Shown: positions 24,801 through 27,800 of the stretch, one piece after another
How positions within the stretch are numbered: the stretch's first letter is position 1
Layout of the letters: every line of letters begins with the position of its first letter
DNA from: Escherichia coli O157:H7
Lineage (GTDB): Bacteria > Pseudomonadota > Gammaproteobacteria > Enterobacterales > Enterobacteriaceae
Assembly (NCBI RefSeq): GCF_013167455.1
Contig: NZ_CP038328.1
Direction: 5' to 3' (one strand)
DNA: 64,000 nucleotides
Program-made: the position numbers

Positions 24801-27800
24801 GGCTCCGGCAATGGGGCTGAACGCCTTCTTTGCGTTCGTGGTCGTGGGGGCGATGGGTATCTCCTGGCAGACCGGGATGGGCGCGATATTCTGGGGCGCA
24901 ATTGGGCTATTTTTGCTCACGCTATTTCGTATCCGGTACTGGATGATCTCCAACATTCCATTAAGTTTACGTATTGGTATCACCAGCGGAATCGGATTAT
25001 TTATCGCCTTAATGGGATTAAAAAATACTGGCGTTATTGTCGCCAATAAAGACACTCTGGTGATGATTGGCGATTTAAGTTCTCACGGCGTGTTGTTAGG
25101 TATTTTAGGGTTTTTTATTATAACCGTGTTGTCATCACGTCATTTTCATGCCGCGGTGCTTGTTTCTATTGTGGTGACGTCTTGCTGTGGATTATTTTTC
25201 GGTGATGTTCATTTTAGCGGCGTCTATTCCATTCCGCCTGATATTAGCGGCGTCATTGGTGAAGTAGATTTGAGCGGCGCGTTAACACTTGAACTCGCCG
25301 GTATCATTTTCTCCTTTATGCTGATCAACCTATTTGATTCATCAGGAACATTAATTGGTGTAACTGATAAAGCTGGCTTAATAGATAGTAACGGTAAATT
25401 CCCCAATATGAATAAGGCGCTATATGTTGATAGCGTAGTTCGGTGGCGGGCGCGTTTATCGGCACCTCGTCTGTTACCGCCTATATTGAAAGTACTTCTG
25501 GTGTGGCAGTCGGTGGTCGCACGGGGCTGACTGCGGTTGTGGTCGGCGTTATGTTCCTGTTGGTTATGTTCTTCTCACCGCTGGTGGCGATGGTTCCTCC
25601 TTACGCAACCGCCGGAGCGTTAATCTTTGTTGGCGTGTTGATGACCTCAAGTCTGGCGCGCGTTAACTGGGATGATTTTACCGAATCGGTGCCTGCGTTT
25701 GTTACCACGGTGATGATGCCCTTTACTTTCTCGATCACCGAAGGGATTGCACTTGGCTTTATGTCGTACTGCATCATGAAAGTGTGCACCGGGCGCTGGC
25801 GCGATCTGAACCTGTGTGTGGTGGTGGTCGCAGCTCTGTTTGCACTGAAGATTATTCTGGTGGATTAGTAACTGGCGAGGGTTTCCAGATATCATGAGTT
25901 CTGATTACGCAGGAGAACTCATGATCTGGATAATGCTCGCCACGCTGGCGGTAGTGTTTGTGGTTGGTTTTCGGGTGCTGACATCCGGGGCCAGAAAAGC
26001 GATTCGCCGTCTCAGCGATCGGCTGAATATCGATGTCGTACCCGTGGAGTCGATGGTCGATCAAATGGGAAAGTCAGCCGGTGACGAATTTTTACGTTAT
26101 TTGCATCGTCCGGATGAGTCGCACCTGCAAAACGCCGCGCAGGTGTTGCTCATCTGGCAAATTGTCATTGTCGATGGTAGCGAACAGAACCTGCTGCAAT
26201 GGCATCGGATTTTACAAAAAGCCCGCCTTGCCGCTCCCATTACTGATGCTCAGGTCAGGCTGGCGCTGGGTTTTCTGCGCGAAACCGAACCTGAAATGCA
26301 GGATATTAATGCTTTTCAGATGCGCTATAACGCGTTCTTTCAGCCTGCCGAGGGCGTTCACTGGCTGCATTAAAACCGCTTCGTCTTATCAGCCTACAGA
26401 CCGCGCCTGACCTGTAGGGTGGATAAGGCGTTCACGCCGCATCCGGTATCGGAACTGACAGTAGGTGAACGCATTATCTACGTTCTATTTACAGCAGCAC
26501 CTCCAACCCGTGTTTTTGCACAATGCTGAGCAGTTTTAATGAAATGCCATTGGGGCGTTTAGCGCCACTTTCCCATTTTTGTACAGTTGAAACGCTGGTA
26601 TTGAGATAGTGAGCGAAGACGGGCTGACTCACTTTTAATTTTTCCCGCAGTGCTTTTATCTCAACAGGTTGTAAGTCTTGCACGCTGGTCAGGCAGGCTT
26701 TGTCAAAAGTACGCATCGTTTCAGCAGAAATAGCATTGACGCTGGACAATCCAGCCGCTGCGCTGTGAATAGCCTCAAATGCAGGACTTTTAAATTTAGT
26801 TTTTGCAGTCATAGCAGATCTCTGTCAGTTCTTTAGTGTTAATCATTGCTGTTAGTTGGGCTTTCGTCAGGAAGGCATAATGCTTTGCAATTTCACGAAA
26901 CCCAGCCAGTTCCTGACTATTGATGTTCGACATATCCTGTTTTGCATATAAAAACGTGTAAAACCAATTGCTTACCCCTTTCGCCAGAATAATTGCACGC
27001 TCACGATTTTGGTGAAGGCGCTTTTTAAAAACGCCACCGCCAAGTGCATCAGCTTTACCTTGTTCTGTTTCTAAAATGGCCCGGCACAACTCTTCATCTG
27101 TTATTGCATGAGACCTGGCTTCCCTTGCAAACCATTTGGTTTTAAACACGCGTATATCGTTGAGGTCCTGTTATTAAAGTATATCACCAAGTGCAATACT
27201 TTATCCCTTGTTCCCAACACAATCGCGAAAATACATATCACCTTGTCCTATGATTTTTATTTCTTCGAGCAGCCTCGAGCTTTTCCCACAACACCGTAAA
27301 AGTTGCAAAAACGTTAAATGCGTCACACATTTCAATGTTAAAGTGGTCGGCTTTTCCCCTGAAACATGCCACGGGTAACACCATGAGTGAATTTATTGCC
27401 GAAAACCGCGGCGCGGATGCCATCACCCGACCGAACTGGTCAGCCGTTTTCTCGGTGGCGTTTTGCGTCGCCTGTCTGATTATCGTTGAGTTTTTGCCTG
27501 TCAGTTTGTTGACGCCAATGGCCCAGGATTTAGGCATTTCGGAAGGGGTTGCCGGGCAATCGGTGACCGTGACCGCCTTTGTGGCAATGTTTGCCAGTTT
27601 GTTTATTACCCAGACAATTCAGGCCACTGACCGCCGCTACGTTGTTATTTTGTTTGCCGTTTTGCTGACGCTCTCCTGCTTGCTGGTTTCCTTTGCTAAC
27701 TCATTCAGTTTGCTTTTAATCGGTCGTGCCTGTCTGGGGCTGGCGCTGGGCGGGTTCTGGGCGATGTCGGCGTCGCTGACCATGCGTCTGGTGCCGCCGC

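Follow-up and report, generated by a model that had tools for sequence, protein, structure and literature searches.

A single lost C splits the adenine permease gene adeQ in Escherichia coli O157:H7, O55:H7, and O145:H28

The window analyzed here, a stretch of 64,000 nucleotides from Escherichia coli O157:H7 (contig NZ_CP038328.1), contains the adenine deaminase gene adeD and the adenine permease gene adeQ side by side in divergent orientation. The gene order uhpT-adeD-adeQ-yicN is the same in K-12 and in the O157:H7-type chromosome represented by the window. The features of the locus are as follows:

22594..24360, minus strand: adeD (ade/yicP), adenine deaminase, intact, 588 aa; NCBIfam equivalog NF007457, 1266 bits, positions 1-588 of 588; intact CDS in RefSeq
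24361..24534, no strand: divergent adeD-adeQ intergenic region, characterized by its G+C composition
24535..25868, plus strand: adeQ (yicO) pseudogene; 'p, frameshifted' in the RefSeq annotation of O157:H7 PV15-279 at the corresponding coordinates; alignment with K-12
24535..25437, plus strand: adeQ codons 1-301 in the native frame, by translation; PF00860 positions 3-278
25436..25437, plus strand: deletion junction with one C missing, corresponding to nt 903 of K-12 adeQ, the third base of Val301 (GTC)
25438..25530, plus strand: out-of-frame tail of 30 codons, VRWRARLSAPRLLPPILKVLLVWQSVVARG, followed by TGA at 25528-25530, by translation; this is the sole stop in that frame
25437..25868, plus strand: adeQ codons 302-444 and stop, left in the original frame as a stranded 3' part, by translation; PF00860 positions 281-387

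The original prediction had described the deaminase gene beside adeQ as intact, in agreement with the match to NF007457 from end to end. It had further noted two ORFs in different frames; both are seen on the plus strand of the sequence, at 24457-25530 with 357 aa and at 25443-25868 with 141 aa. They had been interpreted as one NCS2/AzgA-type permease of about 444 aa split by a single-base frameshift. Alignment with K-12 and an unbroken PF00860 match after repair of the frame supported this interpretation. The upstream ORF as called opens with the GTG at 24457; however, the annotated start is the ATG at 24535, which we take as the true start of adeQ because the RefSeq CDS of PV15-279 corresponds to 24535-25868. 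The final stop codon occupies 25866-25868, and the mechanically called downstream ORF beginning with GTG at 25443 lies inside the stranded 3' part of the gene.

The adeQ gene has a length of 1334 nt in the window, compared to 1335 nt in K-12 MG1655 (b3664), and global alignment of the two genes revealed 25 substitutions and exactly one gap of 1 nt. Alignment to K-12 adeQ had been suggested as a check, and the gap maps between 25436 and 25437, within the region around 25435-25440 where the frame change had been placed. Across the lesion K-12 reads AGC GTC AGT TCG (S V S S), whereas the window reads AGC GTA GTT CGG. Codon 301 is now GTA, which leaves the valine unchanged, and the frame is shifted from codon 302 on. 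The ancestral sequence across the lesion is GTCAGTTCG, with the C present. An extra A had been proposed as the base that would restore the frame, but both the K-12 alignment and the database matches of the C-restored sequence identify the ancestral base as C. Since A and C at the third position of codon 301 both give valine, the protein sequence alone cannot distinguish which base is missing.

According to the translation, the frameshifted gene encodes a product of 331 aa consisting of 301 native and 30 foreign residues. Thereby, 143 of the 444 residues of AdeQ (32%) are lost, corresponding to positions of about 279-389 of the Pfam family Xan_ur_permease. Restoration of the C yielded a continuous protein of 444 aa, which deviates from K-12 AdeQ at four positions (V123I, G285S, I353M, and I390V), and this repaired protein matched PF00860 (Xan_ur_permease) in a single stretch over positions 3-387 of 389 with 153.4 bits (cut-off 27). 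When the fragments were scanned individually, the N-terminal product covered positions 3-278 and the downstream ORF positions 281-387; Pfam thus matched both fragments, although no family was returned for either of them in an NCBIfam scan. A crude hydropathy scan placed the break within a hydrophobic segment (residues 295-309) with about four more segments downstream, so that the missing third of AdeQ comprises about five hydrophobic segments. Published models of AzgA-like transporters (PMC11527162) comprise 14 transmembrane segments, with a beta-motif beside TMS3 and TMS10. The block that is most strongly conserved compared to plant AZG1 (8irl), about residues 301-340 of AdeQ (DSVSSVAGAFIGTSSVTAYIESTSGVAVGGRTGLTA), follows directly on the break. 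As the truncation removes this conserved block along with about five hydrophobic segments, the truncated AdeQ is very probably unable to transport adenine. Compared to intact orthologues the reading frame is disrupted and a substantial part of the protein is lost, as is characteristic of a pseudogene.

The distribution of the lesion was determined among 5426 complete E. coli genomes using a junction query of 44 nt with 22 nt on either side, in which any 28-nt seed necessarily spans the junction. The junction 44-mer occurred in 331 of these genomes, in 330 of them at 100% identity. All serotyped records among the 60 matches listed were O157:H7, O55:H7, and O145:H28 or O145:NM, with no others, and the matches listed included Sakai, two separate EDL933 records, Xuzhou21, and TB182A. 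The comparison with isolates of the same lineage that had been suggested thus showed the deletion to be common to O157:H7, O55:H7, and O145:H28 records. In contrast, 4123 genomes matched the corresponding 45-mer with the C restored, and the identity was 100% in 263 of them. A repaired fragment of 302 nt was 100% identical to intact adeQ alleles of unrelated strains, for example 2014C-3075, which possesses an intact adeQ CDS of 1335 nt with 11 substitutions relative to the repaired gene of the window. This distribution (331 versus 4123 genomes) and the intact identical alleles indicate that C is the ancestral base and that the deletion is a single event in one lineage.

A longer query of 1501 nt comprising adeQ and short flanks (24400-25900) was 100% identical to many complete O157:H7 and O145 chromosomes, in which the gene is annotated as 'adenine permease AdeQ', and was matched over at least 80% of its length in 5386 of the 5426 genomes. 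Eleven genomes were at least 99% identical over the 1501 nt and yet did not contain the junction 44-mer. Judged by the level of identity only, these would fit an intact allele of the 2014C-3075 type (about 99.2%). Rare revertants or O157-lineage genomes free of the deletion may occur, as the 5426 genomes were compared by query matches and not typed base by base. According to published phylogenomics (PMC3893438), O145:H28 and O157:H7 descend from a common ancestor, and O145:H28 separated from this lineage before O55 and O157 split. Based on this placement, the deletion dates to the common ancestor of O145, O55, and O157, barring later recombination; the identity of O145:H28 and O157:H7 at adeQ could also have arisen by recombination instead of vertical descent.

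The original prediction had left two explanations for the frameshift, a genuine inactivating mutation and a homopolymer sequencing error. In the latter case the gene would be intact in the organism and one base dropped from the record. Single-base indels are the commonest type of assembly error, and in the same 32 kb the O157 assembly PV15-279 displays four indels in homopolymers that are specific to this assembly. However, the base missing from adeQ is a lone C formerly flanked by T and A (T-C-A) and therefore not part of any homopolymer; runs of at least 4 bases within 25400-25535 are limited to C4 at 25401 and G4 at 25523, and no homopolymer of 5 or more bases occurs there. Moreover, the identical junction is repeated in the 331 complete genomes, which belong to many different accession series and include Sakai and the two EDL933 records. 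PV15-279 provides an internal control. Comparison of the first 32 kb of the window with this assembly revealed 12 substitutions and four 1-nt indels, and all four indels are located in runs of A or T (near 15009, 15061, 16640, and 16683). Many other O157 genomes match the window with 100% identity in this region, which is located between uhpA and ilvN. A 367-aa ORF (16333-17436) stays open in the window, whereas it is annotated as frameshifted in PV15-279. The four indels are thus probably assembly errors of PV15-279 and not of the window. Unlike these homopolymer indels, the adeQ deletion is carried by PV15-279 itself just as by the other 330 genomes matching the junction. The lesion is reproducible over independent assemblies and lies in a context that is not error-prone, and the probability of an error in the record is negligible. 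It appears equally improbable that full-length AdeQ is still produced by programmed recoding, i.e., by a -1 ribosomal frameshift or transcriptional slippage. A -1 shift could rescue the reading frame within the interval 25434-25527, which is bounded on one side by the last stop of the downstream frame (25431-25433) and on the other by the premature stop (25528). However, a slippery heptamer of the X XXY YYZ type is absent throughout 25400-25535, where the longest homopolymers are C4 and G4. In addition, the junction with C occurs in a single frame in at least 4123 genomes, and the two-frame form is confined to one clonal lineage. As adeQ is a single-frame gene in the other E. coli lineages, no recoding signal is conserved at the lesion, and neither hallmark of programmed -1 frameshifting was found, be it a slippery site within 25400-25535 or a two-frame arrangement conserved among the E. 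coli genomes.

Alternatively, the two ORFs might be translated separately and the resulting polypeptides might assemble into a working permease. Each fragment alone still matches the permease family PF00860, and the downstream part displays no excess of non-synonymous changes compared to K-12 (dN/dS 0.067). Low dN/dS in this part is, however, expected from the youth of the lesion alone. The 20 nt preceding the GTG at 25443 (TATGTTGATAGCGTAGTTCG) contain no Shine-Dalgarno-like GGAGG or AGGA, and the next in-frame ATG at 25551 likewise lacks a Shine-Dalgarno-like motif. Furthermore, the break interrupts the hydrophobic segment at residues 295-309, and the curated annotation of adeQ is that of a pseudogene. 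A split but functional permease is therefore very improbable. The truncation, together with the absence of recoding or re-initiation signals, suggests that no functional AdeQ is made. The explanation as a genuine inactivating mutation was strengthened by the identical junction in the 331 complete genomes, Sakai and EDL933 included. We are thus confident that adeQ of the window is a true pseudogene that arose in the EHEC-1 ancestor by loss of a single C (ΔC903) and was then inherited clonally.

Repaired adeQ differs from K-12 adeQ by 21 synonymous and 4 non-synonymous changes (dN/dS 0.059). The ratio is alike on both sides of the lesion, with 0.055 upstream and 0.067 downstream, and these similarly low values indicate that adeQ was under purifying selection until recently. 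The downstream part is as yet free of signs of decay. This would fit a gene loss that occurred rather recently, in a clonal lineage that is itself young, and does not constitute proof of function. Sakai retains an intact copy of the paralogous gene adeP (ECs_4651, 1338 nt), which is located about 54 kb from adeQ. Both PurP/AdeP and YicO/AdeQ are adenine transporters according to the title of Papakostas et al. 2013, as cited in PMC10976475 and PMC11527162. The neighboring adeD is described as cryptic and silenced by H-NS in K-12 and as being activated by insertion elements, some of which are located in adeQ (Petersen et al. 2002, cited by PMC13274399); correspondingly, the product name of adeD in Sakai is 'cryptic adenine deaminase'. 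The intergenic region between adeD and adeQ (174 bp) has a G+C content of 25.9%, compared to 48% for adeQ, 55% for adeD, and 44% for the whole window, and such a composition would suit binding of H-NS, in agreement with the silencing of the locus reported for K-12. If adeQ shares the silencing of adeD, selection to retain adeQ is likely weak. Given an intact AdeP and reports that the adeD/adeQ locus of K-12 is cryptic and silenced by H-NS, the loss of adeQ was probably tolerated.

Inactivation of adeQ might also have been positively selected in the EHEC-1 ancestor, either by decreasing the uptake of adenine or toxic analogues or by altering the expression of adeD. The lesion has reached fixation in a clonal lineage that is successful, adeQ is otherwise retained almost universally (the 5386 of 5426 genomes with at least 80% query coverage), and activation of adeD by insertions in adeQ has been reported, as already cited above from Petersen et al. 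2002. However, one event in one clonal lineage is no signal of selection, and it is not obvious how a frameshift located 900 nt inside adeQ would affect the adeD promoter. Recurrent adeQ lesions of independent origin did not emerge from the comparison. Positive selection of the lesion is thus unlikely. The wider proposal that an adaptive loss of AdeQ contributed to the emergence of EHEC-1, by changing how purines or adenine are handled in the gut of ruminants or humans, or that a split permease is at work, is highly unlikely. Fixation of the loss by drift or hitch-hiking, rather than by selection, appears the more plausible course. We therefore propose for the pseudogene the following sequence of events. 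A single C at adeQ nt 903 would have been lost in the ancestor of O145:H28, O55:H7, and O157:H7. Translation from the native ATG would then yield 301 correct residues, pass into the shifted frame, add 30 unrelated residues, and terminate at TGA 25528-25530. The product, lacking the last third of the 444-residue permease, would presumably not transport adenine, and its loss would have been tolerated through back-up by AdeP and silencing of the locus, with clonal inheritance of the lesion.

Several other features were observed in the surroundings of adeQ. A toxin-antitoxin pair is located on the minus strand between yicN and nepI (26489-27149). The toxin at 26796-27149 belongs to the RelE family (PF06296, E = 6e-39), and the antitoxin at 26489-26812 is HTH_3/MqsA-like. 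No gene is annotated in the yicN-nepI gap of K-12. The pair is also present in O157:H7, O55:H7, and 2014C-3075, with a frameshifted toxin gene in the latter. Between uhpA and ilvN, an AT-rich block of hypothetical genes (14400-17500) occurs at 99% identity or higher in only 335 of the 5426 genomes, with diverged versions (80-90%) in about 725 others, and looks like a lineage-variable island. Beside yicL, at about 30985-31158 on the minus strand, RefSeq annotates a short remnant of an MFS transporter gene ('internal stop; incomplete; missing N-terminus'). At this position K-12 carries an intact setC, and the remnant is apparently a second decayed transporter gene near adeQ.

The lesion in adeQ is already known from public annotation, as RefSeq lists the gene as 'frameshifted' and Sakai carries it as the pseudogene ECs_4600. 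In both O55:H7 TB182A and Sakai, the 1334-nt adeQ is annotated as a frameshifted pseudogene. In the Sakai record NC_002695.2, ECs_4600 is named 'adeP', although the real adeP is ECs_4651, which represents an inconsistency in gene naming. The original prediction had named, as a finding that would speak against it, reference alleles of the same sequence that encode two separate functional proteins. The same sequence does occur in the O157 references, but there it is annotated as a pseudogene and not as two functional proteins. A literature search on yicO and the O157 pseudogene yielded no paper on this specific lesion, and a paper on the derivation of O157:H7 from O55:H7 leaves the adeQ lesion unmentioned. 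The significance of the result extends little past bookkeeping, since public annotation already records the lesion. ΔC903 is a genuine marker mutation of O157:H7, O55:H7, and O145:H28, which could act as a simple lineage marker, and the assembly needs no correction at this position.

Compared to known systems, adeQ of the window is an ordinary pseudogene that involves no new mechanism and no novel system. Its closest functional counterpart, with which it shares synteny and PF00860, is K-12 AdeQ (YicO, b3664), a permease that takes up adenine with high affinity and belongs to the AzgA-like branch within the NCS2/NAT family. The two genes differ at 25 of 1335 nt and, after repair, the proteins at 4 of 444 aa, identifying them as orthologues; unlike K-12 AdeQ, however, the product of the window is cut after residue 301 and extended by 30 foreign residues. 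Sakai ECs_4600 and the genes listed in RefSeq as 'adeQ, frameshifted' from O157:H7, O55:H7, and O145 display the identical junction and the same length of 1334 nt, and no difference was found between these annotated pseudogenes of the ECs_4600 type and adeQ of the window. The nearest solved structures are those of Arabidopsis AZG1 and AZG2 (PDB 8irl and 9j12; E = 3e-61 for 8irl). In contrast to AdeQ, these proteins are eukaryotic, longer (615 aa), and distant, and they served only to judge the truncated part. AdeP (PurP/YieG) belongs to the same family and has the same substrate as AdeQ, as stated in the title of Papakostas et al. 2013 (cited in PMC10976475). Unlike adeQ of the window, adeP occupies a separate locus and is intact in Sakai. 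AdeP is therefore likely a functional back-up for AdeQ, and adenine uptake in these pathogens probably rests on AdeP alone.
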